Position numbers and translations under genes: made by a program. A DNA stretch of 63,632 nucleotides from Candidatus Omnitrophota bacterium (GTDB lineage Bacteria; Omnitrophota; Gorgyraeia; Gygaellales; Profunditerraquicolaceae), in contig WOZK01000019.1 of the NCBI GenBank assembly GCA_011620275.1, forward strand, positions 1 through 63,632. Reading direction: 5' to 3'. Under the pieces are notes generated by a model. The model saw only the letters and a program-made list of their open reading frames with translations, was not told the DNA's origin and ran no database searches. Below are positions 3,420 through 25,696 of this stretch, one piece after another (the first letter of the stretch is position 1; each line of letters begins with the position of its first letter).

Positions 3420-3465
3420 GGTTTTTTGATTCTTTCAAACCGCTGCGGTCCGGACAGGATATTGT

Positions 3466-5118: not shown

Positions 5119-5137
5119 GACTGTACGCGAGCAAAAT

Positions 5138-7788: not shown

Positions 7789-8822
7789 GGTTGTCCGTGC
7801 CCGCGAACTGGGACGATACTTTTATAGAGAGCCTTTCTCACCGGAAGGTCGAAGAAGTGCGCGGGAAAGCGGAGGCGGGATTGAAGGCCCGGCACGCCGG
7901 GCACATACGGGCGGCGCGCGCCAAAGGGTTCTCTTTTAATTATCTCCTGGATGAAGCGTGCCTGGATAACCGCGAATGGGGCAGGAAATGGCAGCGCGGT
8001 ATTGAAAACCTGCTGGACCGGCTTGCCGCATGCGGAGCCGACAGGCTGACCGTGAGCGTTCCGTATTTGCTGGAGCTGATAAAAAAAAGGTTCCCGCTTT
8101 TCAAAGTAAACGTCTCCGATTCCGCCCATATCGATTGCGCGGCCAGGGCCCGGGTATGGTTTGAACTCGGCGCTGACTCCCTGACCTTGTCCTCCGTCAG
8201 GGTGAACCGCGATTTCGGTCTGATAAAATCCATACGCTCCGCCGTACCTTGCGCGCTGAGACTGTCAGCCAATGCCCCCGGATTATTGAACTGTCCGTTC
8301 TCTTTTCACCGCCCGTTCTTCGGCGCGCACCGCAGCAAAGCAAAAACCGCTCTTTTTGATTATGACCTGGCCGGGTGCCGGCGGATATTTCTCTCCGACC
8401 CTGCAATGCTGCTGAAGGCCTCCTGGATCAGGCCGGAAGACGCCGGTTTTTACAACCGTCTCGGTGTGGATATTCTGGAGCTTTCCGGTTCTTCGCTGCC
8501 GGAGGAAAGACTAAGGATTTTGATAAGCGCTTATTCTCAAGGGGCTTACCGGGGCAATCTGCTTGACCTGCTTTTGTGGGAGAACAGGACGGAGGCGGGA
8601 AGAGATGTTTTTAGCGTGGACAACGCCAAGCTTGACGGCTTCATCGAAAGGCTTTACGAAGCCGGCTGCAACGGCGCGGCCTGCGGCGAATGCCGGTTCT
8701 GCGCCGAAAAGGCGCGCGAGGCGGTAAAATACGAGGATAATGAGCGCCTGCGCGCGTTGAGGAGCCTTGAGCGGGTTTTGAAGAATATGACCGGCGAGGA
8801 AACTAAAAGGAGAGCGCATTGA
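7785..8822 (+). CDS. U32-family paralog, shortened and cysteine-depleted core
   Basis: MRLSVPANWDD, FNYLLDE, VNRDF, WIRPED retained. Core reads GLLNCPFSF..LAGCRRIF (two of four core Cys positions lost), and about 14 N-terminal residues are missing relative to paralogs. C-terminal CNGAACGECRFC (8667-8702) is retained. Confidence 0.75.
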   Translation: MRLSVPANWDDTFIESLSHRKVEEVRGKAEAGLKARHAGHIRAARAKGFSFNYLLDEACLDNREWGRKWQRGIENLLDRLAACGADRLTVSVPYLLELIKKRFPLFKVNVSDSAHIDCAARARVWFELGADSLTLSSVRVNRDFGLIKSIRSAVPCALRLSANAPGLLNCPFSFHRPFFGAHRSKAKTALFDYDLAGCRRIFLSDPAMLLKASWIRPEDAGFYNRLGVDILELSGSSLPEERLRILISAYSQGAYRGNLLDLLLWENRTEAGRDVFSVDNAKLDGFIERLYEAGCNGAACGECRFCAEKAREAVKYEDNERLRALRSLERVLKNMTGEETKRRAH

Positions 8823-10264: not shown

Positions 10265-10291
10265 TATTGCGGTACAGGAGGTGCGGTTTAC

Positions 10292-12022
10292 ATGCGCGCA
10301 GAGAAACAAACATCGTTAAAATACCTAAAACCTCATTTGCCTTTTATATTGCTGACGCTGCTTTTTATAACCTTCAGGATAGTTCAATTGTATTGCTGCA
10401 GACACGTCGCTCATCCCGAAGAAGCCGTACTGGGGTTGTTCATAAAACACGTTATCGAGGGCGGTAGTGCGGTCCCGCTTTCTGACTATTTCCTTTCGTA
10501 TTCCGGGGGTTCTTTTATCTCCTGCCTGCTTGCGCTGCCGTTGTGTAAAATGTTCGGCGTTTCGATATTATCGTTACGCTGGTGTTCCCTTTTGCACAGC
10601 GCCGCCATTCTGCTATTGCTTTATTGCTTCGTTAGAAGGTTCTGGGGCGGGACCACGGCCATTCTTGCCGCTTTTTTTTACATCTTGTCACCGCCGTCTT
10701 ATTCTCATTACACTTCGCTTTTCCTGAGCGGAGAATATCTGGTGATTTTTCTTGATATAGTGCTGATGTATATTCTTCTTGCCATGTTTGTTCCCGAAGG
10801 AGGATGCGGAGAAAGAAAAAGAATGTTTCTTACCGCGGCCCTGGGGTTCGCTTCCGGGCTGGCGGCATATTTTCTGTTTTCCTCCGTTCTGTTTGCGGCG
10901 TTCGCCTTCGGCGTCTGGCTTATGCTGCGCGGCAGATCCCTGCGCAGAGGAGAATTACTCCTATACGGCACATTTCTGCTGCTTGGGCTGCTGCCGTATT
11001 TTTATTCTTCATGCCTGTATCCGGAGCAGAGCCGGTTATTTCTGGGTTCGCTCCTGGAGACGCCCGCGGGGCTGGCGCAAAAAACAAGATGGTTTTTCCC
11101 TTTTCTTGTTTCCGAATTCACGCGCTCTTTCCATTTCGAATTCTTCGGCTATTACCCGGGACGGGCTTACTGGAATCAGATCTACGTTTTGTTCTTCTGC
11201 GGCGCGTGGCTGTATTTGATATGGGTGAACCGTTCATCTTTCCGGCGTATGACTACAGGTATTTTTTTGAAAAGAGAGGGCAAGCGCGGCGCGTCTTCCG
11301 ATCTCAGACCGGAGTCGCTTCTGCTGCCGCTGCCGGTTTTATTCATTGTTGTTTGCTTTTTTAGCGCTTATTGCCGGCCGACGTTCTTTCATTACAGGTA
11401 TTTCTTTCCCCTATACCCGATATTCCAGATTTTTTGCGCGGTTTCGTTATCAGCGTTGTTTTCAGGAAAAGGCAGAGCGGTTAAGGCCTGCGCGCTGGCG
11501 GTAGTGTCGTTTATTATCCTGATATCCTGGCGCGGGGTGACCGGTATAGCGGGTAAACAGGATTTCTGGGAGTCCTATCCATTACCGGAGGCGATATCGC
11601 GCTTGAAGGAAAAAGGGATTGAATATGTTTACACGGAATATTTTCTGAAATGGCAGATATTGTTCGAAAGCGGGGAAGAAGTTATCGCTTCCTGCGAAGG
11701 GATGCCGTTCTTCTATTTTTCTGATTTTGAGGGAGCAAGCGACTCTCGTGTCTATGGCAGTTCGTACCGCTTATACGAGGAAGTTGTGGATAATGCGGTG
11801 CGAAAGGGCGCTTCTTACGCCTATCTCTTTCGCCTGGATCCCCGCCTTCCGTATTACGGGATGCTGAGAAATTATTTGTCCGCTGCCGGAGTTGAATACC
11901 GGATGGAGACGGTCGGAAGTGAACTGGTATTGTTTTACGGTTTCGGGCGTCCGGTCACGCCCGCGCAAGCCGAGCTTGAGTCCGCTATGAAGGACTATCT
12001 GCGTAGAAATGGCGAACGGTAA
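10292..12022 (+). CDS. GT-C fold membrane glycosyltransferase-like protein (PMT_2 / ArnT-like, divergent)
   Basis: AGGAGG before ATG; many TM helices; MFGVSILSLRWCSLLHSAAILLLLYCFVRRFWGGTTAILAAFFYILSPP matches the ArnT/PMT_2 signature region; first-loop acidic pair is HPEEA instead of DE; soluble C-terminal domain. Confidence 0.65.
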   Translation: MRAEKQTSLKYLKPHLPFILLTLLFITFRIVQLYCCRHVAHPEEAVLGLFIKHVIEGGSAVPLSDYFLSYSGGSFISCLLALPLCKMFGVSILSLRWCSLLHSAAILLLLYCFVRRFWGGTTAILAAFFYILSPPSYSHYTSLFLSGEYLVIFLDIVLMYILLAMFVPEGGCGERKRMFLTAALGFASGLAAYFLFSSVLFAAFAFGVWLMLRGRSLRRGELLLYGTFLLLGLLPYFYSSCLYPEQSRLFLGSLLETPAGLAQKTRWFFPFLVSEFTRSFHFEFFGYYPGRAYWNQIYVLFFCGAWLYLIWVNRSSFRRMTTGIFLKREGKRGASSDLRPESLLLPLPVLFIVVCFFSAYCRPTFFHYRYFFPLYPIFQIFCAVSLSALFSGKGRAVKACALAVVSFIILISWRGVTGIAGKQDFWESYPLPEAISRLKEKGIEYVYTEYFLKWQILFESGEEVIASCEGMPFFYFSDFEGASDSRVYGSSYRLYEEVVDNAVRKGASYAYLFRLDPRLPYYGMLRNYLSAAGVEYRMETVGSELVLFYGFGRPVTPAQAELESAMKDYLRRNGER

Positions 12023-13358
12023 AGTGGTGCTTCTGCTAAACGCTCCTTGCGATAACCGTTTTTTTGTCTCCAGACAGGCGCCCCTGGGGTTATTGTATAT
12101 AGCTTCTTATCTTCGTAAACACGGGGTGGAGGTAGCTCTTTTAGACCTTAACGTTATGCCGTTTTGGCGCGGCAGGCTTAATTATCTGGTAAAGAAACTC
12201 AGACCGGCCATAATCGGCGTATCGGTCAACTATTCCAGCCGTAAGGAGGCCATTGAGATTTGTAGGATTATCAAGGCCGTCGATCCGGGGATAACGATAG
12301 TGCTGGGCGGCCCGCAGCCTACGATTTCTCCCGGTGAATTTTTCGCCAGCAGAGCGGACTATATAATACCTTACGAAGGGGAACGAGCGATGCTGGAATT
12401 TGCGCGGGCGGGATCTGACAGGTCGGCGCTTAGGAATGTGTTTTCTTGCAGGGACGCCGGGCTGGCGGATTCAGTGCGTAAGGCCGACAGGTATCCCGTC
12501 GAAGATTTGAACGACCTGCCTTTTCCGGCGTATGATCTGATCGACATCAGGCCTTATTACATAAACAGTTACAAGAGGAAGCCGATTGTTTCCGTGCTTA
12601 CTTCTCGGGGATGTCCGAACAACTGTATTTTTTGCAGCCAGGCCGTTTCCGGGCGTTCCTGGAGGGCGCGTTCCGCCGGTAACGTGGCCGACGAATTCGA
12701 ATGGCTCACAAGGGAGATAGGCGCAGGGGAAATATCCGTGGAGGACGATAATTTCACGGCGGATATCGGCAGGGTTTACGAGTTCTGCGGATTGTTGAGA
12801 AAACGGGGAATCAGCATTCCCTGGCAGCTGGCGAACGGCGTGCGCGCCGACCGTTTGACGAGGGACCTCCTTAGCGAACTCAAGGTATCCGGCTGCTGGA
12901 AGATTGCCATCGCGCCCGAGGTCGGCGACGATGAGAGCATGAAACGAATACGCAAGGGAATGAACATGGAGCATTTCCGGCAGGCCGCGCGCTGGTGCCG
13001 GGAGACCGGCATGGTTTATTACGCTTATTTTCTTATGGGGTTCCCTTTCCAGGGGGAAAAAGAACTGCGTGCTATAATAGATTTTGCCGAAGAGCTGGAT
13101 CCCCTGCTGATGGATCTGTCCAAGATCGTCCCTTTTCCCGGTACGGAGATATACGATACGCTTGCTTCCGGCGCAGGAACGAATATCTCCTATTACTACA
13201 GAGGACGGGACCCGCTTATAGAGCGTTATTACCGAAAAGCGTATCTTGATTTCTACCTGCGTTCGGGAAAACTGCGCAGGATAATCTCGGCCATAGGGAT
13301 CAGGCAGTTTTGTTCGCTGGCTCGTTACGCCTGCCGGGTACTCCTGGCTGGACGTTGA
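12009..13358 (+). CDS. B12-binding domain radical SAM protein (paralog group with 13370 and 25738)
   Basis: VVLLLNAP..APLGLLYIASYLRKHGVEVALLDLN, GGPQPTISP, LNDLPFPAYDL, CPNNCIFC, GCWKIAIAPEVGD. Confidence 0.9.
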   Translation: MANGKVVLLLNAPCDNRFFVSRQAPLGLLYIASYLRKHGVEVALLDLNVMPFWRGRLNYLVKKLRPAIIGVSVNYSSRKEAIEICRIIKAVDPGITIVLGGPQPTISPGEFFASRADYIIPYEGERAMLEFARAGSDRSALRNVFSCRDAGLADSVRKADRYPVEDLNDLPFPAYDLIDIRPYYINSYKRKPIVSVLTSRGCPNNCIFCSQAVSGRSWRARSAGNVADEFEWLTREIGAGEISVEDDNFTADIGRVYEFCGLLRKRGISIPWQLANGVRADRLTRDLLSELKVSGCWKIAIAPEVGDDESMKRIRKGMNMEHFRQAARWCRETGMVYYAYFLMGFPFQGEKELRAIIDFAEELDPLLMDLSKIVPFPGTEIYDTLASGAGTNISYYYRGRDPLIERYYRKAYLDFYLRSGKLRRIISAIGIRQFCSLARYACRVLLAGR

Positions 13359-13369
13359 CGGAACCGGAA

Positions 13370-14704
13370 ATGAGAAAAAAAATACTTCTTATAAACGCCC
13401 CATCTAGTCGAAAAGATTGCATCTGCGTGTTGCCTCCCCTGGGGGTGCTCTCCTTAGCGGCGTTCCTGAGACGGGCCGGTTTTGGAGTTGCGGTCGCCGA
13501 CTTCAACGCCGATAGGCGCTGGCGCGCTAAACTCGGCGCGCTCATCAGCGGGCATCGGCCGGAGGTGGTGGGGATCTCAAGCAATTTCTCCAATAAGGCA
13601 CTCTCATTGGAGATCGCCTTGATGGTCAAAAGGTTCGACGAGAACATAACCGTGGTGGCAGGCGGGCCGCATCCCACGATCGCTCCGGAGGAGTACGCAG
13701 GCGGTTCCATAGATTACGTCATCCCTTACGAAGCGGAACTGCCGCTTCTGGATTTTCTTGCTTCTTCCGACAAGAGCGCCGTTCCCGGAGCAGTCTCTTT
13801 GAGGCGGGGGGACGTGAATAAAGCGGTAGCCGGTATCCAGCGCTGCTGTGTGGAAGATATGGATAGTCTTCCTTTTCCGGCCTATGACATGGTGGATCTG
13901 CGCGGGTATATAGGGAGTATATACAGGAAAAGGCCGTTAGCGTCTATAGTTACTTCCCGGGGGTGTCCGTATAGTTGTATATTCTGCAGTCAGGGGGTAT
14001 TCGACCGTCGCTGGCGCGCTTTCTCCGCCGGTTATGTGGCGGAACAGATGCTCTGGATGAAGGAATCTCTGGGTATAAGGGAACTTCTCATAGAGGACGA
14101 TAACTTCACTTATGACATTGAGCGCGTCTTCAGGATCTGCGAGCTTATCCTTTCCAGCGGGAAAAAAGTCAACTGGCAGCTCTCCAACGGGGTAAGGGCC
14201 GATAGACTGAGCAGGGAACTGCTGGCCGTTATGAAACGGGCCGGGTGCTGGAAGATATCCATTGCCCCGGAGGTCGGAGATGAGGAGAGTCTGAAAGTAC
14301 TGAGTAAAGGCATGACTATGGAGCATTTTGTTCGCGCCGCGCAATGGTGCAAAGAGCTCAAGATCGAATTCTTCTGTTTCTTTCTGATGGGATTCCCTTT
14401 TCAGGACCGTGTCAACATGGAGAATACCGTGAATTTCGCCCTGCGTCTGGATCCTTTAATGATGGATCTGAACAAGATAGTACCTTTCCCGGATACTCCA
14501 TATTTCTCCAGGTTCCCGGACCGGAGCATATACAAAAAAGCGCACAGTTATCAATATAAAGGCGGTGACCGCGAAGTCGACCGGATGTGTACCAGGGCAT
14601 ACCTGCGTTTTTACGCCAGGCCGGAGAAACTAATGCGTATTTTGCTGGCCATGGGGCCGCTCCAATTCCTGCGTTTCGTCAAATACGCCGGCAATGTTTT
14701 GTGA
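13370..14704 (+). CDS. B12-binding domain radical SAM protein (tandem paralog of 12009)
   Basis: ATG 13370 (MRKKILLINAPSS) lies 11 nt after stop 13358; the ORF-track start 13310 overlaps the upstream gene. GGPHPTIAP, MDSLPFPAYDM, CPYSCIFC, GCWKISIAPEVGD. Confidence 0.9.
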   Translation: MRKKILLINAPSSRKDCICVLPPLGVLSLAAFLRRAGFGVAVADFNADRRWRAKLGALISGHRPEVVGISSNFSNKALSLEIALMVKRFDENITVVAGGPHPTIAPEEYAGGSIDYVIPYEAELPLLDFLASSDKSAVPGAVSLRRGDVNKAVAGIQRCCVEDMDSLPFPAYDMVDLRGYIGSIYRKRPLASIVTSRGCPYSCIFCSQGVFDRRWRAFSAGYVAEQMLWMKESLGIRELLIEDDNFTYDIERVFRICELILSSGKKVNWQLSNGVRADRLSRELLAVMKRAGCWKISIAPEVGDEESLKVLSKGMTMEHFVRAAQWCKELKIEFFCFFLMGFPFQDRVNMENTVNFALRLDPLMMDLNKIVPFPDTPYFSRFPDRSIYKKAHSYQYKGGDREVDRMCTRAYLRFYARPEKLMRILLAMGPLQFLRFVKYAGNVL

Positions 14705-14735
14705 TTTCGCCTTATGGTGATGTGTAGGTGCATAT

Positions 14736-16136
14736 ATGGAAAGAAAACCGTTTAAAGAACGGAACCGGATAATGCTGGTACGTTTCTCCCCGCGGCAGGG
14801 GATAAAACTGACGCATCCTTTGGGGGTGATGCCGCCGTTTACTCTTAAATACGTCCAGGCTTTGTTAGAGAAAGAGGGTTCCTTCCGCGTTGAATTGGCG
14901 GATTGTTCGCTTTATCCGCTTACGCCGGAGGGGCTGGTGCGAAAGGCGGCGTCTTTCGCGCCAGACTGTCTGGTGATGCAGGCAGATGTGTTAACGTATC
15001 GGCCGGCGCGGGAGTTTGCCGAGCTGGCGCGCGCGCGGGGGATGGAATCGTTCATTTTGACAGGGCCGGGGGTTGATCTTTTTGATGCCGCGGAGCTCTT
15101 TCCGTTATGCATAAGCGGAGAAGGAGAAGTAAAAATTGCGGAGGTAATAAAGGAGTGCGCGCGCGCGCGCGATTTTTCTTCCAAGCGTCTGCGTTCCCGG
15201 GCCCAGGAATGCGCGGGTAAGGAATTCCTCGTGGAGGATCCGGACAGTCTGCCGTTCCCGTCTTACAGCCGCCGTGAAATTGAAGGTTACTCGGGGATAT
15301 TCCCGTTGCGTTTTAACGGCAGGGCCAAGTATGGTTTTGTGCTTTCCGGCAGGGGGTGTCCCCACGACTGCGGTTTTTGTTCCGGGGCGATCAGGGTAAG
15401 CTGCGGTTCCCGTGTGCGTTTTCGGAGTCCCGGGAACGTGGTGGACGAGATGGTGTCACTTGTCGGAGCTGGAGCCAACATCATTTCTTTCGCCGACGAT
15501 GATTTTAGTTGTTTGGAGAAGCACGCGACCGGGATATGCGAGGAGATACTGCGCAGGAAATTGAGCGTGCGCTGGACTGCTCAGGCGCGTCTGGACGAGC
15601 TCTCGCGGGAAGCTCTGCGCTTGATGAAGCGTTCCGGTTGTATCCTTCTGCGACTGGGCGTCGAATCCGGCTGCGAACGGGTTTTGAAAGGGCTTAGTAA
15701 ATGTGCGGATCCGGTTGAGTGGAAACGGCTGGCCGGGCAGGTTTCCGGTTGGCTGGCTAACGAGGGGATAGCCTGCGACGCAATGTTTATGATCGGCAGC
15801 CCGGGAGAGACGGGACCGGAGATCGGAGAGACGATGAGGCTTTGTTCTTCCATGAAGCCGGATTTCATCCAGGTGCACTATTACGCTCCTTATGCGGATT
15901 CACGGATGTCCGCCGGAGTTGCTGCATCGTGCTGTACTCCGCATCATTACGCGGTTCCGGAGCGCAGTTTGAGCGCGGTGGATATTCCCGGTTTGAGAAG
16001 ACTGAGGGCTTTTTTCTATCTGCGGCTGTGCCTGGATCCTTTCTTCATCCTGCGTCATTTGAGCAGGTATGGTTTTTTCTATTTGCGCAATCCCCGGGTG
16101 TTGCTGCGGCTGTCAGGGATGCTGTTGAGTTTCTGA
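14736..16136 (+). CDS. B12-binding domain radical SAM protein (divergent)
   Basis: IMLVRFSP..LGVMPPFTLKYVQALLEKEG, PDSLPFPSY, CPHDCGFC, LRLGVESG. Confidence 0.85.
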   Translation: MERKPFKERNRIMLVRFSPRQGIKLTHPLGVMPPFTLKYVQALLEKEGSFRVELADCSLYPLTPEGLVRKAASFAPDCLVMQADVLTYRPAREFAELARARGMESFILTGPGVDLFDAAELFPLCISGEGEVKIAEVIKECARARDFSSKRLRSRAQECAGKEFLVEDPDSLPFPSYSRREIEGYSGIFPLRFNGRAKYGFVLSGRGCPHDCGFCSGAIRVSCGSRVRFRSPGNVVDEMVSLVGAGANIISFADDDFSCLEKHATGICEEILRRKLSVRWTAQARLDELSREALRLMKRSGCILLRLGVESGCERVLKGLSKCADPVEWKRLAGQVSGWLANEGIACDAMFMIGSPGETGPEIGETMRLCSSMKPDFIQVHYYAPYADSRMSAGVAASCCTPHHYAVPERSLSAVDIPGLRRLRAFFYLRLCLDPFFILRHLSRYGFFYLRNPRVLLRLSGMLLSF

Positions 16137-17462: not shown

Positions 17463-18644
17463 ATGAAACTTTTGATGCCTACGAACTGGGACGACGCGCT
17501 GGTCCCCGAATATAAGAAGCTGGGAATAGCCGAATGTTACGGTAAGCTTGCCGTGGACGTCGTGGGAGGCGGTCGGTCGGCGTTCATTCTCCCGAACGTT
17601 TCCCGTACCCGAGTCGCCGGGCATATCCGCAAGCTGCACGGGGCGGGGATTAAATTTAATTATCTTTTAAACGCCGCTTGCGGTTCTTTCCGGGAGTTTA
17701 GCCGTTCCGGGGATAGGGAGGTACGGAAACTGTTGGGTTGGCTGGCTGACGCCGGGGTGGATTCCGTTACCGTGGCCTCGCCGTATTTCCTACAGATGAT
17801 AAAGACGAAATACCCGGTTTTTAAGATCTGTGTTTCTACCAATGCCGAGGTCGCCTCTCTGCAAAAAGCGCTTTTCTGGCAGGAGCTCGGGGCGGATCAG
17901 ATTACGCTTTCGCATAACCTGGCGAATCGCGATTTCGCCCTGATAAGGCTGCTGAAGAAGAAAATCTCCTGCGAATTGAGGCTGATCGCCAACACCAGTT
18001 GCCTGCTGGATTGTCCTCTCTCCAGGTTTCATACCGCTTACGACGCCCACAGCTCGCAGGCGGATTCTACGCGCAGACCCGGTTTCGCCGTGGATTATTG
18101 CAATCTTTTTTGCAAGCTGATCCGCTTTAGCGACCCGGTGAAGTTCATCTCTTCCCAGTGGATCAGGCCGGAAGACCTGGCTGTTTATGAATCCGCCGGT
18201 ATCGGGATGTTCAAATTGATCGACAGGCGTTGCTCCACGGAGAAACTATTGCTCATCGGACGGGCTTACGCCGGCCGTAGATACGACGGTAACCTGGTGG
18301 ATCTGCTGCCGATATTTCACGGCAAGACCGTGCTTGATTCCCGCACGCTGCCGTTGAAACTCAGATATTTTTTTCATCCTCGCGAACTCAATCTTTTTTC
18401 TCTGACCGAGCTTGGGAGTATACTGCAGGATTTTAGAATCCGCATAGACAACACCAAACTGAACGGTTTCATAGGGAAATTCGTCGCTTCCGGCTGTCCG
18501 CCTGAAGGCTGCTCCGACTGCGGTTATTGCGCGCGGGTAGCCGGAGAGGCTTTGAGCTACGATAAGGAATACCTGGATTCCCTGCGTGAAAGACACGGAA
18601 ATTTTCTAAAAAAATTAGTAAACGGTGATTTGTTTCACTATTGA
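17463..18644 (+). CDS. U32-family Fe-S protein
   Basis: GGAGGGG before ATG 17463; MKLLMPTNWDD matches paralog N-termini; FNYLLNA, KICVSTN, ANRDF, CLLDCPLSRFH, DYCNLFC, WIRPED; C-terminal CPPEGCSDCGYC (18495-18530). Confidence 0.8.
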   Translation: MKLLMPTNWDDALVPEYKKLGIAECYGKLAVDVVGGGRSAFILPNVSRTRVAGHIRKLHGAGIKFNYLLNAACGSFREFSRSGDREVRKLLGWLADAGVDSVTVASPYFLQMIKTKYPVFKICVSTNAEVASLQKALFWQELGADQITLSHNLANRDFALIRLLKKKISCELRLIANTSCLLDCPLSRFHTAYDAHSSQADSTRRPGFAVDYCNLFCKLIRFSDPVKFISSQWIRPEDLAVYESAGIGMFKLIDRRCSTEKLLLIGRAYAGRRYDGNLVDLLPIFHGKTVLDSRTLPLKLRYFFHPRELNLFSLTELGSILQDFRIRIDNTKLNGFIGKFVASGCPPEGCSDCGYCARVAGEALSYDKEYLDSLRERHGNFLKKLVNGDLFHY

Positions 18645-18652
18645 GAGGGCGT

Positions 18653-20494
18653 ATGCGGCAAAAAACCATGCCAGGAAAAAATGATTTCCCACTGCTTCCG
18701 GCGGTGCTTTTTCTACTGGCGCTGGCATTGAGGATATTTAACCTGCAAAGGTTTGATTTACAGTTCGACGAACTTTTTTCTTTTATCACTGTGGGAGCGC
18801 GTGATTTGCCGGGACTTGCCGCCGGCTATATGAACAGCCGTCCGCTTTTCATTTACAACCTTTTCATGAGTTGGTGGCAGGGTTTAGGGCAAGGGGCTTT
18901 TTTTTACCGTTTGCCTTCCGCCGTTTTCGGGGCGGCATGCGTTCCGGCGGTATACCTGCTGGGCCGCGAGATGTCCGGGCGCAGGACCGCTCTGATCGCG
19001 GCGTTATTCACCGCGCTTTCGGCGTTCCACGTCAACTTTTCGCAGGAGATATCTCCCTACGCCGCGGCTTGTCTGTTAATGGCGATTTCGTTCTACGCTT
19101 TTTTCCGCTGGCAGCGGACCGGCGGCAGACGGTATCTGATGCTTAACTTAGCCTGTAATCTTGCCGGCCTGTATCTGATCTATTATTACGTGATGACCGT
19201 CATTTTACAGCTTTGCTTTTATCTTTGCGCCCGAAAACGTTTTAATCAAACCGCAGAAATCCCCGGCTTTCAAGCCGGATTTACTTTAACCAATCGGAAG
19301 GTCAAGTATTCGCTTGTGCGAAAATGTGGAGTAGATAACCCCGCAGAGTGCCGGAAAAATGCCGAAGGGATTTTCCCGGTATCTTACAACACGGGGTTAA
19401 TCGAGAAAGAAACCCCGGGCTTCAACCCGGGGAGCTTCATCGGCGGAATCCGGAGCTGCGCGCTACCCGCCGTCGTTTTCTTGCTTCTATGCCTGCCTTG
19501 GCTGTTCCTGACGGCGCTGGAACTCGGCCGGGTCATCGTCTTAAAGAACGCCGCCTGCGGCGTTTATTCCATCACACCCTACAACACGCAGGTCTCATTG
19601 ATGAGCCTTTTCTACAGCCTGGCGAATTTCAGCGCCGGGTATTACAGCCCGGCGCCGGTGCGGGCCGGTTCTTTTCTTCTTTTATCGGGATTATTCTGCG
19701 CTGGAACAGTGTGTTTTTATAAACGGGATAAGTTTTCGGGGTGGCTGGTCCCGGCGGCGGTTTTCGCGCCTATGCTTTGTCTGTTTCTGGTTTCACGTTT
19801 CGCGCTGATCTATACAGACAGGTATCTGTTTACGGGTATGTTGTTCTTCTACATAACGGCGGCCTGCGGGCTGGAGCGGCTTTTCGTCCGGGCAAAGCCG
19901 GCGGCGGCAGCGCTGGCGCTGTGTTTGTTCGTATTGCAGGCGGTATCTTTATACGGATATTATACGGATCGCTGGACTGTTCCTTTTGAAAGACGGCAGG
20001 GGATCGATACCAGAAAATCTTACAAAGCCGCCGCCGCCTATTTATATTCACGTTTCGGGGAAAACGACGCTCTGCTGCATCTCTCGGAGATTTCGACGCT
20101 TTCTTTCGACTATTATAAGCCCTCCGGCGGTTCTCGCGGACGAATGGTTTCCCTTCCGGAAATGATCGGTTTCACCGAAGATTATTTTTTCACCTATAAG
20201 ACTTCGCCAAAAGTGGCCCTGCATGACATACGCGGGCACGCCTTTCATCTCGTGCTCCTGAGAGGGAACGGCAGACAGGGGCGTTCCGGTATCGTTTTCC
20301 CCGATCGTGACTATCCCAGAATATGGGTTGTGCATGCGGGATGGGACGGGAGCGATCCGGGAGCGCTCCTGTGCATGTTCGAGTCATCGGCGGGGGAGAA
20401 TTACGCGCTCGGGGAAACGGCCAATTTCGGCGGGGTGCGCATAATGCTTTATAAAAACAGGGCCTGTATTTCCGGCTTCACGGTGCAGAGATGA
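18653..20494 (+). CDS. GT-C fold membrane glycosyltransferase, GT39/GT83 (PMT_2 / ArnT-like) with 71-codon insertion
   Basis: LQFDELFSF first-loop motif, RPLFIYNLF..YRLPSAVFGAACVPAVYLLGREMSGRRTALIAALF signature, many TM helices, soluble C-terminal domain; ATG 18653 chosen (ORF-track TTG 18641 overlaps the upstream stop). Confidence 0.8.
   Translation: MRQKTMPGKNDFPLLPAVLFLLALALRIFNLQRFDLQFDELFSFITVGARDLPGLAAGYMNSRPLFIYNLFMSWWQGLGQGAFFYRLPSAVFGAACVPAVYLLGREMSGRRTALIAALFTALSAFHVNFSQEISPYAAACLLMAISFYAFFRWQRTGGRRYLMLNLACNLAGLYLIYYYVMTVILQLCFYLCARKRFNQTAEIPGFQAGFTLTNRKVKYSLVRKCGVDNPAECRKNAEGIFPVSYNTGLIEKETPGFNPGSFIGGIRSCALPAVVFLLLCLPWLFLTALELGRVIVLKNAACGVYSITPYNTQVSLMSLFYSLANFSAGYYSPAPVRAGSFLLLSGLFCAGTVCFYKRDKFSGWLVPAAVFAPMLCLFLVSRFALIYTDRYLFTGMLFFYITAACGLERLFVRAKPAAAALALCLFVLQAVSLYGYYTDRWTVPFERRQGIDTRKSYKAAAAYLYSRFGENDALLHLSEISTLSFDYYKPSGGSRGRMVSLPEMIGFTEDYFFTYKTSPKVALHDIRGHAFHLVLLRGNGRQGRSGIVFPDRDYPRIWVVHAGWDGSDPGALLCMFESSAGENYALGETANFGGVRIMLYKNRACISGFTVQR
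19244..19456 (+). repeat. in-frame insertion carrying palindromic repeat units
   Basis: Hairpin units at 19257-19282 (aaatccCCGGCtttcaaGCCGGattt) and 19413-19432 (CCCCGGGcttcaaCCCGGGG). They translate to the duplicated peptide EIPGFQAGF / ETPGFNPGS. The segment is absent from the two paralogous GT-C genes. Confidence 0.45.
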
Positions 20495-21915
20495 AAAGGA
20501 TAGTGTTGGTTAATCCTCCTTTGAGCAGCAGGCAGCAGGGATCGCTCTTATCTTCGGCGATAGGCAGAACGATACCTTACGGTCTTTTAAGCGTGGCGGC
20601 GGCGGTAAGGAAGGCCGGTTACGATGTCAGGGTGGTGGACGCTGCCAATTCCGATTACGGTATCCGGGAGGCCGCCGCGGCGGTGACGGGGCTGCGTCCG
20701 GATTATATAGGTATTTCCGCGGTTACCGTTTCCATCAAGAACGCCGGGGCACTGGCAGGGGAGATCAAAAAACGCGGCTGCGGCGTTCCGGTTATCATCG
20801 GCGGGATGCACGTGAGCGCGCTTCCGGAGGCAACAATGAGGGAATTCCCCGGTTTTGACATCGGGGTGGTGGGTGAGGGGGAGGAGACCATAGTGGAACT
20901 GCTGGCCGCGTTTGAAAACAAGACCGGTTTGTATAAGGTAAACGGTGTGGTTCTACGTGGAACAGGCGGTCCGGTGAGGACAGCGGAGCGGGCTTTCATC
21001 TCTGATCTCGATTCCATACCGTTGCCTGCATGGGATCTCGCGGGCGGCCGCGATACTTTTTACCGGCTTTCCGCCACCTCCTATATAAGGTTGCCGGCAG
21101 CCCCCATCGTGACTTCCCGCGGGTGCACCTCTAATTGCATATTCTGCAGCTGCAGGGCGATGTTCGGGGATCTGCGTTGTTTTAGCGTAGGTTACGTAAT
21201 GCGTATGATCAAACAACTCGTAAACGACTACGGCATAAAGGATGTCAGTATTTACGACGATAGTTTCGTCTCTCGCGGAGAGAGGGTCCGCGAATTCTGC
21301 GAAACGATCCTGAAAGAAGGGCCTTCCTTTTCCTGGTCGTGTTATTCTCGCGTGGACCACGGGGACGAGGGGCTCTTCCGTTTGATGAAAAAGGCCGGCT
21401 GCTGGCAGATAAGCTACGGCATAGAAAGCGGCTCACAGCGCATACTGGATTTCCTCGGCAAAGGGGTCACGTTGGAGCGTATAGAACGTGCCGTCAACGA
21501 CACAAAAAAGGCGGGCCTGCGTGCCCGGGGGTTCTTTATGCTGGGGCATCTTTCCGAAGACCGAGCCTCCATGAGAGCGACGCTGCGGCTTCTGCTGAAG
21601 TTGAAACTGGATGATTTCCACATCGCTTATTACAACCCTTTCCCGGGAACTAAAACAGCGCTTTTGGCTGACCGCTACGGTAAGGTCGATCCGGACTGGG
21701 ACAAGATGAATATGCATAACCCTTCTTTCATACCCTTCGGGCTGACGGTTAAAGATTTGGAATCATCTTCTAAATACGCCTACCGCCGGTTTTACTTCCG
21801 CGCCAGGATCATTCTGGGATATCTGGGCATAATTCTACGTTATCCGGAGAATATCCTGAGGGTACTGAAGGGGTTTAAGGCGGTCATCTGTAAAATAAGT
21901 ATGAGCGAAACATGA
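20491..21915 (+). CDS. B12-binding domain radical SAM protein
   Basis: ATGA overlap; IVLVNPP..IPYGLLSVAAAVRKAGYDV, VGEGEETIVELL, LDSIPLPAWDL, CTSNCIFC, YGIESGS. Confidence 0.9.
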   Translation: MKRIVLVNPPLSSRQQGSLLSSAIGRTIPYGLLSVAAAVRKAGYDVRVVDAANSDYGIREAAAAVTGLRPDYIGISAVTVSIKNAGALAGEIKKRGCGVPVIIGGMHVSALPEATMREFPGFDIGVVGEGEETIVELLAAFENKTGLYKVNGVVLRGTGGPVRTAERAFISDLDSIPLPAWDLAGGRDTFYRLSATSYIRLPAAPIVTSRGCTSNCIFCSCRAMFGDLRCFSVGYVMRMIKQLVNDYGIKDVSIYDDSFVSRGERVREFCETILKEGPSFSWSCYSRVDHGDEGLFRLMKKAGCWQISYGIESGSQRILDFLGKGVTLERIERAVNDTKKAGLRARGFFMLGHLSEDRASMRATLRLLLKLKLDDFHIAYYNPFPGTKTALLADRYGKVDPDWDKMNMHNPSFIPFGLTVKDLESSSKYAYRRFYFRARIILGYLGIILRYPENILRVLKGFKAVICKISMSET

Positions 21916-21925: not shown

Positions 21926-22936
21926 ATGAAAATACTTTTGACCGGCGTGCCCGGATGGCTGGGGAACCGTTTCCTGGAGATGCTTTTCGCCTCTGAGCTC
22001 GGGATTACGGAGAAATGTTCCGTCCGCTGCCTGGTTCAGCCTGGCCTGGCGGTTGATAGTGTGCCTAATCTTTCCGGTCCGGGCAAGATGGAGATATTTT
22101 CGGCTGACATCACCAGGAGAGAATCCCTTATGGGCGTCTGCTCTGGTGTGGACGTAGTCTTACACGCCGCCGGGCTCATCCACCCGAGCAGGCCGCCTAA
22201 ACTGTTCACCGTCAATACACTGGGGACGCTCAATCTTATATCCGAGGCGAGCGCAAACGGCGTCACCCGGTTTGTATACATAAGCAGCAATTCGGCTGCG
22301 GGGGTAAACAAGGCGCGGCACAAACCGATGCGAGAGACCGACGAACCGCGTCCGTATATGAATTACGGATTGAGCAAGTATTACGCCGAATGCATAGTGC
22401 GAAGTTTTCAGGGAACGGGAGGAATGGAGACTGTGATCCTGCGTCCCTGCTGGTTCTACGGGCCTAACCAACCGCGCAGGCAGAGCAGATTTTTCAGGAT
22501 GATTAGCAGTGGGTCTCCGTTCATCTTCGGGGACGGTTTTAACCTGCGCAGCATGAGTTATGTGGACAATGTCTGCCGCGCGATGGCGCTGGCGGCATTG
22601 AGAAAGGAGGCGTCCGGCCGGACCTACTGGATCGCCGATGCCAGGCCTTACACCACTCTGGAGATATACAGTACGATCGCCGAATTGCTGGGGGTAAAGC
22701 GGTTCCGGCCGCATTTTCTGCCCGGGTTAGTCCCAGATATTTGCGCGCTGGCTGACAGGGTGTTGCAATTCGCCGGGTTATATTTGACGGAAATACACGT
22801 GGCTGGTGAGATGAACAAGGACATATTCTGTAGTGTGGAAAAGGCCGCGGTCGAACTGGGTTATAAACCTGAGGTGGAATTACGCGAAGGGATGCGGCGT
22901 TCCATCGAGTTTTGCAGAGCGAGAGGGGAATTGTGA
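21926..22936 (+). CDS. NAD-dependent epimerase/dehydratase (extended SDR)
   Basis: MKILLTGVPGWLGNRF glycine-rich fold, YGLSKYYAE (YxxxK). Confidence 0.8.
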   Translation: MKILLTGVPGWLGNRFLEMLFASELGITEKCSVRCLVQPGLAVDSVPNLSGPGKMEIFSADITRRESLMGVCSGVDVVLHAAGLIHPSRPPKLFTVNTLGTLNLISEASANGVTRFVYISSNSAAGVNKARHKPMRETDEPRPYMNYGLSKYYAECIVRSFQGTGGMETVILRPCWFYGPNQPRRQSRFFRMISSGSPFIFGDGFNLRSMSYVDNVCRAMALAALRKEASGRTYWIADARPYTTLEIYSTIAELLGVKRFRPHFLPGLVPDICALADRVLQFAGLYLTEIHVAGEMNKDIFCSVEKAAVELGYKPEVELREGMRRSIEFCRARGEL

Positions 22937-22937
22937 A

Positions 22938-23954
22938 ATGTATCTTATAACCGGCGGAAGCGGATTCCTTGGAACCGGCCTCGCACGCAGATTGACCGCC
23001 TGTGGCGGGATGTCGGTGCGTATATTCGACTTGCGCGGCGGGAGGGATTTACCGGCCGGAGCGGAATTCTTCCGGGGGGACATTCGAGAACCAGAGGATG
23101 TAGGCAAAGCGGTCGAAGGCGCAAGCACAGTCTTTCATCTGGCTTCCCTTTTGCCGTGCGCCAGGGCCGGCAAGGGATTCTACGAAGTCAACGTGGAAGG
23201 CACGCGTAACCTTATGGAGGCTTGCCTTCGGCAGGGGGTGAAACGTGTGGTTTATGTTTCATCCAGCTGCGTCTATGGGCTGCCGGTGGCTCTGCCGCTC
23301 AGGGAGGATTCTCCCGTAAATCCGGTTGGAGATTACGGCAGGAGCAAGCTGCTTGGAGAAGAGGTCTGCCGCGGCTATATCTCTTCCGGGATGAGGGTTT
23401 CGATCATCAGACCGCGTTTTATCGTCGGCTCCGGCAGACTGGGGATTCTGGAGGTTATCTTCGGCTGGGTGCGGGAGAACAGAAAGGTTTATACCATCGG
23501 CAGGGGAAACAATCGTTTTCAGATGGTGGGCATCGAGGACCTAATCGACGCTTGTCTGCTCGTGGCCGGTTCGGGTAAGAATGACGTTTATAACATCGGC
23601 GCCGACGGCGTCCCCACGGTCAGGGAACTTCTCGCCGGGCTTATCAGGCACGCGCGCAGTTCATCCGCCCTGGTGCCGTTGAATGCCACCGCGGTTAAAC
23701 TCGGGATGCGAATCTTGGATGCTCTGAACCTTGTAGCGTTTTCGAGGGAACAGTATCTGTTTGCGGACAAGGAATACATACTGGATACGTCGAAAGCTAA
23801 AGAAGAACTCGGCTGGAAACCGAAATATACCCATGCCGGGGCCTTCAACTCCGCTTATGATTGGTATATCAATAATCAATCTGCCTCCGGGGAGGAGAAT
23901 AAGAGCGACCATCCTCCGGAGAAAATACTTCGCCTGCTGAAATATTTACCTTAG
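22938..23954 (+). CDS. NAD-dependent epimerase/dehydratase (extended SDR)
   Basis: ATG 22938 lies 1 nt after stop 22936; MYLITGGSGFLGTGL, YGRSKLLGE (YxxxK). Confidence 0.8.
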   Translation: MYLITGGSGFLGTGLARRLTACGGMSVRIFDLRGGRDLPAGAEFFRGDIREPEDVGKAVEGASTVFHLASLLPCARAGKGFYEVNVEGTRNLMEACLRQGVKRVVYVSSSCVYGLPVALPLREDSPVNPVGDYGRSKLLGEEVCRGYISSGMRVSIIRPRFIVGSGRLGILEVIFGWVRENRKVYTIGRGNNRFQMVGIEDLIDACLLVAGSGKNDVYNIGADGVPTVRELLAGLIRHARSSSALVPLNATAVKLGMRILDALNLVAFSREQYLFADKEYILDTSKAKEELGWKPKYTHAGAFNSAYDWYINNQSASGEENKSDHPPEKILRLLKYLP

Positions 23955-23959
23955 ACAAT

Positions 23960-24889
23960 ATGAATATTATCCGATTCTTCAAAAGAGCTTTTGCCGCCGT
24001 CTGGAAGCGCTTTGTTTTATGGGGCATACAGCTGAGGGTCGCGCATTGGGGCAAGAACTCCCTGGTCTTTTTCCCCATGCTTTATTGCGGGCGTGGGGGG
24101 GATTTCTGGACGTTTGTCCGGGTTTGCGGTCTTTTCGCGGCGTTCTGTTTGTTGTCCAGCGCGATGTATCTGATCAATGACATAGCCGATATCTCTTGCG
24201 ACCGTTTGCATCCTTTTAAGCGCGCGCGTCCGCTGGCCTCCGGATCTCTTCCCTCGACACTGGTCCCGGCACTGGCATTGATATTAACGGCGGTCAGCCT
24301 GGGCACGGCTTTTTTTATGGAGCGCGGCGCTTACCATGTCCTTTTCGCCTATCTGCTTAACGCGCTGGCATACACTTTTTTCTTCAAGAAGACAGCGTTC
24401 CTTGATATACTGTCATTAGTGACGGGTTTTTTTCTGCGTCTGGCGGCGGGCGCGGAGGTCTCCGGCTGCCGAATGGATAAGAGCGTTCTTATTTGCATGT
24501 TCTTTCTTTGTCTGTTTTTCATCTTTGCCAAGAGGCGCTCGGAGTTGACGCTTTTGAAAGTCCGCAGTGTGGACCCTTTATCCACGCGGAAAGTTTTTCA
24601 GCGTTACGGAGAGAGAAGACTGGATGCTGCGTTGAAAGTATCGGCTGCGCTGTCTATCTTTTCGTATTTGTTCTTTGTTTTCAAGTCTTTGTCTGCGCGG
24701 TCCATTGTTTCGTTCTATCTGTTTTTGTTTAGCGTGCCCCCGGCTGTATATTGCCTGTTAGAATACGCGAAGGTACTGAGGTCGGGGGAGACGGACGGCA
24801 TTTTTCGCAGCGTTCTGAAACACGCAAATATCCTGGCTGCATCGGGCGTATGGGCGTTGTTTTTCTTTTTGGCGGCCGTCCGGCAATAG
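23960..24889 (+). CDS. UbiA-superfamily prenyl-phosphate phosphoribosyltransferase-like enzyme (DPPR synthase / Rv3806c-like)
   Basis: RVAHWGKNSLVFFP N-terminal motif, YLINDIADISCDRLHPFKRARPLASG (NDxxDxxxD..HPxKxxRPxAxG), 8-9 TM helices, 309 aa. Confidence 0.75.
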   Translation: MNIIRFFKRAFAAVWKRFVLWGIQLRVAHWGKNSLVFFPMLYCGRGGDFWTFVRVCGLFAAFCLLSSAMYLINDIADISCDRLHPFKRARPLASGSLPSTLVPALALILTAVSLGTAFFMERGAYHVLFAYLLNALAYTFFFKKTAFLDILSLVTGFFLRLAAGAEVSGCRMDKSVLICMFFLCLFFIFAKRRSELTLLKVRSVDPLSTRKVFQRYGERRLDAALKVSAALSIFSYLFFVFKSLSARSIVSFYLFLFSVPPAVYCLLEYAKVLRSGETDGIFRSVLKHANILAASGVWALFFFLAAVRQ

Positions 24890-24973: not shown

Positions 24974-25696
24974 ATGATAAAAACCGCAACTGCCGCTATA
25001 CTGTTTTCGCTGCCGGTGGTTCTACTGGGACATTGTCCTTCAGCGGCGGAACAAATAATCTTGAAGAATGGACAGACTTTCGAAGGAAAGGTAGTGTCCT
25101 ATAACGACAAGATCGCCCAGATAGAAAGATTCGGGGTAGTGATCCCTTATTTTGTCTCCGAGATTCAGAGCCCGGCCCTGACGGGCGACGGACTGGCCGC
25201 TTCCGAGTTGAACGCTCAATGGGGTTTTTCCGTCAAATGGCCGGCTGGATGGATCTCTCGGGAAATGGAGATGGGTCCGCCGCTGCTGTTCTACGTATAC
25301 GTGGGAGATCCCGATAAAATCAAGGAGGATTCACCCAGGATATACGTCACGGGCTGGAGGGATAACTCGCCGCTGGAGGCGATGGGGTCTAAAGTCATAG
25401 ACGATCTTTTTAAACGTTCCTCTTCCTCGGGAAGCGTTCCCGTTATAAGCTCTCCCCTTAAGTCAGTGACCGTCAACGGTTTCCCCGCGGTTACCTTTTC
25501 TTTCGACTTTCAAAATCTTTATGATGAATGGGAGAAGGTGTGGATGCGCGGCGTGAGGGTGGATAGTTACCTTTTCAATTCCGGCGGGATAATGATCCTG
25601 CTGGATCTTGTCTATCATAACGATCGGCGGAGCGCAAAAGAGCTGGCGGTGTACGGTGAGATGCTTAAGTCTCTGCGCCTGATCCCGCCGGAATAG
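24974..25696 (+). CDS. exported hypothetical protein
   Basis: GGGAGG 6 nt before ATG 24974; signal-like MIKTATAAILFSLPVVLLGHCPSAAEQ; no recognisable motif. Confidence 0.5.
   Translation: MIKTATAAILFSLPVVLLGHCPSAAEQIILKNGQTFEGKVVSYNDKIAQIERFGVVIPYFVSEIQSPALTGDGLAASELNAQWGFSVKWPAGWISREMEMGPPLLFYVYVGDPDKIKEDSPRIYVTGWRDNSPLEAMGSKVIDDLFKRSSSSGSVPVISSPLKSVTVNGFPAVTFSFDFQNLYDEWEKVWMRGVRVDSYLFNSGGIMILLDLVYHNDRRSAKELAVYGEMLKSLRLIPPE

Follow-up and report, generated by a model that had tools for sequence, protein, structure and literature searches.

An extended SDR pair beside a UbiA-type phosphoribosyltransferase in Omnitrophota as a candidate source of a polyprenyl-phosphate-linked pentofuranose donor

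We analyzed a 63,632-nucleotide stretch of a Candidatus Omnitrophota bacterium genome (GenBank assembly GCA_011620275.1, contig WOZK01000019.1, positions 1–63,632; hereafter the window), and in particular positions 21926–24889, which hold two genes for extended short-chain dehydrogenases/reductases (SDRs), named SDR1 and SDR2 here, followed by one UbiA-family gene, all on the + strand. The phylum Omnitrophota branches deeply and is largely uncultured; its bacteria are ultra-small and mostly anaerobic. Spacers of 1 nt (SDR1/SDR2) and 5 nt (SDR2/UbiA-family gene) separate the three genes, which lie inside a long co-directional run; a scan for promoters and terminators found promoter-like sites at chance level and no convincing terminator within the module. 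Pfam recognizes both SDRs as Epimerase-family proteins (E 6e-32 for SDR1, 1.6e-37 for SDR2) and the third product as UbiA (58.8 bits; cut-off 34.2). Because all homologs begin there, we place the start of SDR2 at the ATG at 22938 (MYLITGGSGFLG), rejecting the GTG at 22833 given in the list of open reading frames (ORFs). An earlier, sequence-only reading had assigned the module to a polyprenyl-phospho-pentose donor pathway on the basis of two strings in the translated UbiA-family gene, RVAHWGKNSLVFFP and NDIADISCDRLHPFKRARPLASG, and of two extended SDRs directly upstream. Both strings are present in the 23960 product, and the three genes lie where that reading had placed them, with GxxGxxG and YxxxK motifs in the SDRs.

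The 23960 product is well supported by its sequence, structure model and phylogeny as a predicted Rv3806c-type enzyme that transfers 5-phosphoribose from phosphoribosyl pyrophosphate (PRPP) to polyprenyl phosphate (PRPP:polyprenyl-phosphate 5-phosphoribosyltransferase, PPPRS, also called DPPRS). Its top three NCBIfam matches are decaprenyl-phosphate phosphoribosyltransferase/PRK08238 models (164.8, 144.7 and 141.6 bits), led by NF008977 (decaprenyl-phosphate phosphoribosyltransferase; E 2.9e-48), and the models for heme O synthase, 4-hydroxybenzoate prenyltransferase and chlorophyll synthase score at most 32 bits. A sequence search of the PDB returned Rv3806c (8j8j) at E 9.5e-26, with ApUbiA as the next family at 0.014. 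The AlphaFold2 (AF2) model, obtained with 58 homologs, has a pLDDT of 93.7 and a pTM of 0.88, and Foldseek ranks PRPP-bound Rv3806c (8j8j_A) first for this model (TM-scores 0.80/0.85, rmsd 2.9 Å), with archaeal UbiA homologs (AfUbiA) trailing at 0.70/0.76. In a neighbour-joining tree (Kimura distances, 33 sequences, 294 columns, 200 bootstraps, three E. coli outgroups), PPPRS groups at 100% bootstrap with Rv3806c and with HAD-fused PPPRS from Stenotrophomonas, Sphingomonas and Mesorhizobium and, within this clade, belongs to the subclade containing Rv3806c (86%), far from E. coli UbiA, MenA and CyoE.

The ligand contacts described for Rv3806c comprise N73 and D77 for Mg/pyrophosphate, N73 and Q135 for ribose, K28, Y70 and Y157 for the 5'-phosphate, and R22, K87, R90, K143, Y138 and K208 for pyrophosphate (PMC10994848). 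All of these are kept in the PPPRS alignment except at positions 135, where Gln is replaced by Ala, and 157, where Tyr is replaced by Phe, a variant that also occurs in some mycobacteria. In the numbering of the window protein, the pyrophosphate cluster is R26, K87, R90, K143, Y138 and K211, the NDxxDxxxD loop supplies N73, D74, D77 and D81, and the 5'-phosphate contacts are K32 (equivalent to Rv3806c K28), Y70 and F157. The loop-IV residues K191, R192 and E195 (Rv3806c numbering) are conserved as well; their equivalents in ORF15 of a related system are R366 and E369 (PMC11127046). E. coli UbiA, MenA and CyoE lack K28, Y70, K87 and K191/R192/E195. The NCBIfam scores, PDB search, tree, residues and fold thus agree with the earlier description of the protein as DPPR-synthase-like, and the clustering with quinone or heme prenyltransferases that would have spoken against it was not seen; such an identity is ruled out by the hidden Markov model (HMM) scores, PDB search, fold, tree and phosphoribosyltransferase-specific residues. 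Close relatives of this PPPRS are few: only five proteins exceed 50% identity, and the rest of the ~1,400 matches show 39% or less. Plasmids often carry PPPRS genes (100 records). Around three distant homologs (L006–L008) the gene contexts varied, and inspection of the neighbours for DprE1/E2 or SDR genes found none.

SDR1 and SDR2 share 28% identity, and both fit a GalE-like extended SDR with GxxGxxG and YxxxK motifs, cytoplasmic and encoded beside a PPPRS. As a rule, an acidic residue at the end of strand β-2 marks an SDR as NAD-dependent and its absence marks NADP(H) dependence. SDR2 has an Asp at this position (VRIFD), together with the active-site strand SSSCVYG. SDR1 lacks an acidic residue after β-2 throughout its family (VRCLVxP; VRCLVQP here), its other features being GxPGWLG, SSNS (SSNSAAG here) and YGLSK. 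Because the acidic residue is absent in SDR1 and kept in SDR2, the sequences suggest that SDR1 would be an NADP(H)-dependent reductase and SDR2 an NAD-dependent oxidase or epimerase. The SDR2 family is broad, with 40–55% identity across many phyla including archaea, and the SDR1 family is small and distinct (180 representatives at E ≤ 1e-30 among 1.84 billion clusters). Among PDB entries, SDR2 matches the GDP-sugar 4-epimerase 8rdg best, with NSDHL and GalE next; the best characterized relatives of the two SDRs are nucleotide-sugar enzymes and 3-beta-HSD/NSDHL, none of them near a curated cut-off. Signal peptides and membrane-spanning topology are predicted for neither SDR (SDR1 has a single hydrophobic stretch, in its Rossmann region, and SDR2 none), so both are predicted to be cytoplasmic, which fits action before flipping of a lipid-linked sugar.

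Two more specific assignments of the SDRs were rejected. RmlB-type NDP-hexose 4,6-dehydratases require a catalytic Thr-Asp-Glu (TDE) before the Tyr of YxxxK. This motif is absent from both proteins, whose strands read SSNSAAG in SDR1 and SSSCVYG in SDR2, which rules out the 4,6-dehydratase role that the top matches of SDR1 would indicate. A DprE1/DprE2-type epimerase pair is likewise ruled out: the island around the module holds no flavoenzyme, both SDRs are of the extended type, and DprE2, a short classical SDR, is absent from the listed PDB matches at E ≤ 1e-5 (all 45 for SDR1, the best 60 of 109 for SDR2). The analogy that the sequence-only reading drew from DprE2 being an SDR is therefore loose, the window SDRs being extended, GalE/3-beta-HSD-like enzymes.

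Next to PPPRS, the SDR pair is a recurrent feature. A profile search of genome contigs seeded with a 9-sequence SDR2 alignment returned 73 loci, which were screened by blastp and a PPPRS HMM. Ten of these contain both SDR1 and SDR2, as do 3 further loci identified before, and 9 of the resulting 13 carry a PPPRS within 10 kb (Omnitrophota, Elusimicrobia and archaea); an SDR1 gene stands beside or near an SDR2-type gene in every SDR-pair locus fetched. Gene order varies, reading UbiA-SDR1-SDR2 in two other Omnitrophota loci and one Elusimicrobia locus, SDR1-UbiA-SDR2-GT-C in L010 and SDR1-SDR2-UbiA in a Methanobacteriota archaeon, with the genes dispersed in a Nanoarchaeia locus. In 12 proteobacterial loci, a single SDR2-like gene (33–37% identity) immediately follows the gene for a ~480-aa HAD-PPPRS fusion; the S. 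maltophilia example belongs to the O-antigen locus and is flanked by etfBA and the Wzt/GT genes. SDR1-family domains are also found fused to other enzymes (P0259, P0342, P0260, P0333, P0286, P0297, P0314 and P0331), in the combinations GMC oxidoreductase+SDR1, HAD+PPPRS fragment (HMM E 3e-23)+SDR1, SDR1+HAD phosphatase (P0286), SDR+SDR1 and SDR1+methyltransferase. Because the pair recurs with PPPRS and SDR1 is fused to GMC oxidase, HAD-PPPRS and HAD phosphatase, a role of the SDR pair in epimerizing a lipid-linked pentose appears likely from sequence comparison, if unproven.

Rhizobial symbiosis plasmids carry a further version of the pair, with SDR1-type (40–42% identity) and SDR2-type (34–37%) proteins together with HAD-PPPRS. 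The cluster consists of HAD-PPPRS, SDR1, a 10-TM (transmembrane) hypothetical protein that is a GT-C candidate, a GMC oxidoreductase, a small hypothetical protein, an SMR transporter and SDR2, and is found on pNGR234a (L091, 299625–307690), pRCCGE531b (L090, 451293–459235) and also Mesorhizobium pMLa. It shares with the window the two SDR types, PPPRS and a possible GT-C enzyme, and differs in the fusion of HAD to PPPRS, in the SMR transporter with its small partner, in the FAD-dependent GMC oxidoreductase and in the absence of radical S-adenosylmethionine (SAM) and U32-like genes; it is also distinct from the noeCHOP arabinosylation genes. On pNGR234a the cluster lies close to nodS/nodU. It offers a genetically tractable system for finding the pentose made by the SDR pair.

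Some of these sequences show signs of damage or unusual neighbours. P0333 appears degenerate in its PPPRS motif (NQxxDxD) and in its SDR catalytic Tyr/Lys alike. The PPPRS gene between the SDR1- and SDR2-like genes of L010 (8052–8969) contains a single in-frame stop, and several of its neighbours are fragmented; the contig comes from a long-read metagenome, and assembly errors or a decaying locus are possible. Large sulfatase-domain proteins of the alkaline-phosphatase superfamily adjoin HAD-PPPRS in the S. maltophilia O-antigen locus (L038, 5387–8068) and lie next to the SDR pair of the island-like locus L009 (6169–7959 and 13832–15364); they may be phosphotransferases or phosphatases.

Related systems are already known outside Actinobacteria. 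Kelly et al. (2024, PNAS; PMC11127046) described Gram-negative 'three-component systems' in which a UbiA-type polyprenyl phosphoribose synthase is combined with a flippase (MATE or SMR) and a GT-C enzyme. In Citrobacter the synthase is fused to a HAD phosphatase, and for Citrobacter and Stenotrophomonas O antigens a cytoplasmic GalE-like SDR, ORF13, converts undecaprenyl-phosphate-linked ribofuranose (undP-Ribf) to the xylofuranose form (undP-Xylf). According to the same study, DprE1/E2 homologs serve arabinofuranose (Araf), and lyxofuranose (Lyxf), for which both inversions are needed, has never been seen. P. aeruginosa pilin Araf is a further example outside Actinobacteria. The supplement of that study (SI Fig. 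S12) points to 'more elaborate systems' in which several epimerases and GT-Cs are encoded, among them a Rhizobium CCGE531 plasmid, on which we find the same SDR1/SDR2 pair as in the window. Because the P. aeruginosa, Citrobacter and Stenotrophomonas systems and noeCHOP have been described, and systems with PPPRS, flippase, GT-C and SDR epimerases are in print, the novelty that the sequence-only reading had seen in an occurrence outside Actinobacteria falls away. The three genes themselves are an expected relative of the published system; it is the pair, the fusions and the island context that we consider worth following.

The likeness to the system of Kelly et al. extends to a UbiA-type PPPRS drawing on PRPP, a GalE-like extended SDR for remodelling lipid-linked ribofuranose and GT-C consumers, and the position of an SDR2-family gene right after HAD-PPPRS in the S. 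maltophilia O-antigen locus corresponds to the arrangement in PMC11127046. The window nevertheless departs from it in having no HAD fused to PPPRS, no MATE, SMR or GtrA gene in cis, two SDRs in place of one, PMT_2-like GT-Cs, a setting among radical SAM and U32-like genes and an uncultured Omnitrophota host. With the mycobacterial pathway (Rv3806c, Rv3807c, DprE1, DprE2, Emb/Aft), the module shares a homologous first enzyme with kept PRPP/Mg contacts and the proposed logic of lipid-linked ribose, keto intermediate, epimer and GT-C transfer. In contrast to that pathway, it has no FAD_binding_4 DprE1, no classical-SDR DprE2 and no PAP2 phosphatase, and its extended SDRs are unrelated to DprE2 in sequence search. 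Azorhizobium noeC(N)HOP, in which NoeH and NoeO are DprE1/E2 orthologs (PMC5080398), is of the mycobacterial type, as the sequence-only reading had correctly stated, and in this respect unlike the window module.

The module lies within an island of 27 kb (about 1749–28505), all on the + strand, that comprises nine class-B-type radical SAM genes, three intact U32-like genes, a DegT gene, three GT-C genes, the three-gene module and a gene for an exported protein, X (Table 1). We consider it probable that the three module genes encode cytoplasmic-face steps in building a polyprenyl-phosphate-linked pentofuranose donor for surface glycosylation by the GT-Cs. In the first step, which is well supported, the 23960 enzyme would move ribose-5-phosphate from PRPP to polyprenyl phosphate with release of pyrophosphate. 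The 5-phosphate would then be taken off by a phosphatase encoded outside the window, and SDR2 and SDR1 would remodel the ribofuranose while it is lipid-linked. The likeliest route would run through a keto-pentose, formed by oxidation and then reduced with inversion of stereochemistry, and would amount to epimerization at C2 and/or C3 to give Araf, Xylf or Lyxf, with the NAD-type, GalE-like SDR2 as the putative oxidizing or epimerizing enzyme and SDR1, which has no NAD-type Asp, as the reductase. Finally, an unseen transporter would flip the donor, and the island GT-Cs, the 18641 enzyme first among them, would use it in the periplasm. On this reading, an all-nicotinamide SDR pair would, with fair likelihood, take the place of DprE1/DprE2 or of a single ORF13 epimerase. 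By analogy, the fusion of SDR1 to a GMC-type FAD oxidase may mirror the division of labour between DprE1 (oxidase) and DprE2 (reductase), and the SDR1-GMC fusions suggest a rule by which aerobes would use an FAD oxidase with SDR1 and anaerobes SDR2 with SDR1.

As consumers of such a donor, the sequence-only reading had named three GT-C genes. Two of them score above the Pfam PMT_2 cut-off and the one at 10292–12022 below it, and all three products have 9–11 hydrophobic segments; they are mutually unalignable. The position of the 18641 gene is kept in L001, L003, L004 and L012–14, and its product is most likely the consumer of the lipid-linked donor. Elsewhere, a GT-C gene adjoins the PPPRS/SDR module in two Omnitrophota loci (L019 and L020), a GT39 gene stands beside PPPRS in Legionella, and the Lactococcus PPPRS is encoded beside an unannotated 533-aa GT-C candidate, a HAD phosphatase and a GtrA gene. 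The earlier proposal of a polyprenyl-phosphate-pentofuranose donor for the GT-Cs fits this comparative context; the action of the SDRs and the resulting pentose stay unproven parts of it. If correct, the pathway would extend the PRPP-based route for adding pentofuranose outside the cytoplasm to the Omnitrophota. What is new is the recurrent SDR1+SDR2 module with PPPRS in Omnitrophota, Elusimicrobia, some archaea and rhizobial plasmids, in place of DprE1/DprE2 or a single epimerase, and a conserved island that is rich in radical SAM, U32-like, DegT and GT-C genes and lacks a phosphatase, a flippase and a flavoenzyme in cis.

Several observations weigh against this pathway. Neither a HAD or PAP2 phosphatase nor a MATE, SMR or GtrA flippase turned up in the island or in the ORFs scanned over the 63.6-kb window, so that two of the proposed steps depend on unseen genes. 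A DprE1-like flavoenzyme (FAD_binding_4/ALO) is likewise missing among these ORFs, and the earlier statement that none of the three activities is visible holds over the same range. The intergenic gaps of the island are too short to conceal a flippase gene, PPPRS (309 aa) lacks a HAD domain, and apart from PPPRS and the three GT-Cs the island encodes no integral membrane protein. X was considered as the missing phosphatase or flippase and ruled out, being a soluble, exported PsbP-like protein whose sole hydrophobic segment is N-terminal. PPPRS itself scores under every NCBIfam equivalog cut-off (NF008977, 164.8 against 234; NF008978, 144.7 against 207; NF006088, 141.6 against 351) and is therefore a divergent member of its clade, and its Ala135 replaces the Gln that contacts ribose O3 in Rv3806c; across the family this position is Q, N, T, M, S, A, I or G, with Thr in the HAD-fused group.

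On the side of the SDRs, the cofactor split is drawn from one sequence position, and the top-scoring characterized relatives of both proteins are nucleotide-sugar enzymes. The pair occurs without PPPRS within 10 kb in L009, L011, L017 and L018, and many single SDR2-like genes (Planctomycetota, Alphaproteobacteria) have no PPPRS nearby. The proteobacterial PPPRS-linked SDRs show S(T)DMxYG where SDR2 has SSSCVYG; because these active-site strands differ, equal function is not assured, and the comparison of SDR2 with ORF13 (C. youngae O2) draws on the published description of ORF13 only. The GT-C calls rest on modest Pfam scores, and PDB sequence searches with all three products gave zero matches.

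The absence of PPPRS from four SDR-pair loci, the DegT gene 4.5 kb upstream and the top characterized matches of the SDRs (dTDP-glucose dehydratase, GalE, GDP-sugar 4-epimerase and MoeE5) would also fit a different arrangement, in which only PPPRS makes a lipid-linked sugar, plain polyprenyl-phosphate-Ribf, and the SDRs are nucleotide-sugar enzymes that, with DegT, produce a keto- or amino-sugar of their own for the same surface glycan and merely share its operon. We regard this as unlikely, given that neither SDR has the TDE motif needed to feed DegT a 4-keto-6-deoxy sugar, that no nucleotidyltransferase is present in the island, and that the SDR-PPPRS neighbourhood persists despite shuffled gene orders across bacterial and archaeal phyla and is joined by the HAD-PPPRS-SDR1 and SDR1-HAD fusions.

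A second alternative assigns a larger part to the other island enzymes: the PPPRS product would be a lipid-anchored scaffold for oxygen-independent deoxygenation, C-methylation, hydroxylation and amination by the radical SAM, U32-like and aminotransferase proteins, the SDRs would reduce radical-made keto intermediates as AprD3 does after AprD4, and the GT-Cs would transfer several tailored pentoses. AprD4 is known to work with an SDR reductase, and the 27093 product matches the AprD4 diol-dehydratase family (Table 1). Also in keeping with a scaffold are the single co-directional run in which nine diverged class-B radical SAM genes, four U32-like genes (one split) and DegT are interleaved with three GT-Cs and PPPRS, the synteny of this core in Omnitrophota, and the location of the enzymes, with radical SAM, U32-like, DegT and SDR proteins cytoplasmic and the GT-Cs acting in the periplasm. 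By blastp to the island proteins, radical SAM-type genes accompany the SDR pair in L021 (Elusimicrobia; B12-binding confirmed by Pfam), L015 (Nanoarchaeia), L019 and L020 (Omnitrophota) and L009, and the aerobic rhizobial version carries the GMC oxidase in place of radical SAM genes. However, no island radical SAM or U32-like protein reaches a curated family cut-off, the co-location could reflect another branch of the same glycan pathway, and literature searches on radical SAM/U32/GT-C clusters and on radical SAM biology in Omnitrophota brought up no relevant work and no precedent for radical SAM or U32 chemistry on polyprenyl-linked sugars. We rate this scaffold as distinctly improbable.

A bolder proposal, which we offer as a rather unlikely one, takes polyprenyl-phospho-ribose as a platform for oxygen-independent tailoring by class-B radical SAM (including AprD4-like), U32-like and DegT enzymes in strictly anaerobic, ultra-small Omnitrophota and also in those Elusimicrobia and DPANN-type archaea that have the module. 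The SDRs would handle keto intermediates, yielding several deoxy-, C-methyl-, hydroxy- or amino-pentofuranose donors, or the never-observed Lyxf by double C2/C3 inversion, and three dedicated GT-Cs would install them on the surface. Were the radical SAM and U32-like enzymes to act on the same lipid-linked sugar, this would amount to new anaerobic sugar chemistry, and the biochemistry of lipid-linked sugars would gain a new branch.

Among the U32 proteins are enzymes that hydroxylate prenylated quinone precursors without oxygen, and membership of the 23960 product in the UbiA superfamily, together with four U32-like genes (one split) in or near the island, could bring to mind an aromatic or isoprenoid prenyltransferase that makes an anaerobic quinone-like lipid with UbiU/UbiV relatives and radical SAM methylases; this is highly improbable, as HMM score, PDB search, fold, tree and phosphoribosyltransferase-specific residues group the protein with phosphoribosyltransferases and not with UbiA, MenA or CyoE, and the U32-like proteins give partial Pfam U32 matches, no match to the UbiU/V models and, as their sole NCBIfam match, a 22-bit TrhP hit of the 17448 product.

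Table 1. Genes of the three-gene module and of the surrounding island (positions in the window).
Feature	Position	Strand	Remarks
SDR1	21926..22936	+	336 aa; extended SDR; GVPGWLG, YGLSK
SDR2	22938..23954	+	338 aa; extended SDR, GalE-like; GGSGFLG, YGRSK
PPPRS (UbiA superfamily, Rv3806c/NoeC/ORF15-C type)	23960..24889	+	309 aa, ~9 TM helices
GT-C (PMT_2/ArnT-like), conserved core	18641..20494	+	Pfam PMT_2 36.4 bits (cut-off 26.1); 9 hydrophobic segments
Second GT-C (PMT_2)	3466..5118	+	Pfam PMT_2 44.8 bits; 11 hydrophobic segments
Third GT-C, weakly supported	10292..12022	+	Pfam PMT_2 22.2 bits, under cut-off 26.1; 9 hydrophobic segments
Six class-B radical SAM genes, upstream half (1749..16136)	starts 1749, 5138, 8819, 12009, 13310, 14736	+	Pfam; interleaved with two GT-Cs
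Two U32-like genes, upstream half	starts 6601, 7785	+	
DegT-family sugar aminotransferase, conserved core	16158-17372	+	
U32-like protein, conserved core	17448-18644	+	
Class-B (B12-binding) radical SAM, directly upstream of SDR1	20491..21915	+	Pfam B12-binding and Radical_SAM; no NCBIfam cut-off reached
X, exported protein	24974..25696	+	signal peptide/anchor, small beta domain, PsbP/Mog1-like alpha/beta sandwich
Radical SAM with B12 domain, downstream of X	25738-27084	+	kept in L001, L003, L004
Radical SAM without Pfam B12 match	27093-28505	+	117.7 bits to AprD4 diol-dehydratase family; kept in L001, L003, L004

The core of the island is conserved beyond the window. In three contigs, with PPPRS identities of 74%, 55% and 51%, the syntenic order is radical SAM, radical SAM, DegT, U32-like, GT-C, B12-radical SAM, SDR1, SDR2, PPPRS, X, B12-radical SAM, radical SAM, so that SDR1-SDR2-PPPRS-X is kept in relatives down to 51% PPPRS identity. 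Paralogs within the island are diverged, with identities of 24–52% (mostly 24–32%) among the radical SAM proteins and 35–41% among the U32-like proteins. L009 encodes a 66% identical copy of the 20491 radical SAM protein next to its SDR pair. A fourth U32-like gene, which lies just upstream of the island, is split by a frameshift into two overlapping ORFs in different frames (159–629 and 496–1422), which match the 6601 product at 44% and 43% identity and are recognized by Pfam in neither case; the split gene (159–1422) is either a pseudogene or an assembly error. One of the contigs (L014/L001, CAZAVF010000003.1) belongs to a metagenome-assembled genome labelled 'uncultured Planctomycetales bacterium' and carries the same island at 81–91% protein identity (74% for PPPRS); it is probably a mis-assigned Omnitrophota genome.

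The genome nearest to the window is that of Candidatus Undivivens industriae (L012, Omnitrophota). The two share ~91% DNA identity on both sides of 24213–25750, an interval that covers the 3' two-thirds of PPPRS, the whole of X and the initial codons of the radical SAM gene that follows, and in which no DNA alignment was obtained. At the protein level, identity is 55% for PPPRS and 42% for X, against 87–96% for the flanking genes. The interval looks, from these sequences, like a swapped or fast-evolving cassette. A smaller alignment gap lies in the GT-C gene (19245–19441).

X carries an N-terminal signal or anchor and has no Pfam match and five homologs only, of which the named one is from Omnitrophota. 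Its gene follows PPPRS in L001, L003 and L004, and three tandem paralogs occupy L009 (10058–12258), between the SDR pair and a GT-C gene. The AF2 model (pLDDT 66) matches PsbP, BT_1490, M. tuberculosis Apa/LpqN and DcrB in Foldseek, and the modelled fold could be that of a periplasmic accessory protein or acceptor.

We set the downstream boundary of the island at about 28505 because, in L003, a Dlt-like acylation set replaces the ROK/transaldolase/LptD genes of the window. In that contig (L003, 14960–18834) the island goes on with MBOAT, B12-radical SAM, acyl-carrier (PP-binding) and AMP-binding genes. In the window, the genes right after the island (28678–34794) encode a ROK kinase, a transaldolase/FSA, LptD, a UDP-glucose dehydrogenase and a UXS/ArnA-like SDR; together with DegT and the ArnT-like GT-Cs they could form an Arn-like aminopentose route, of which no ArnC-type GT2 is present.

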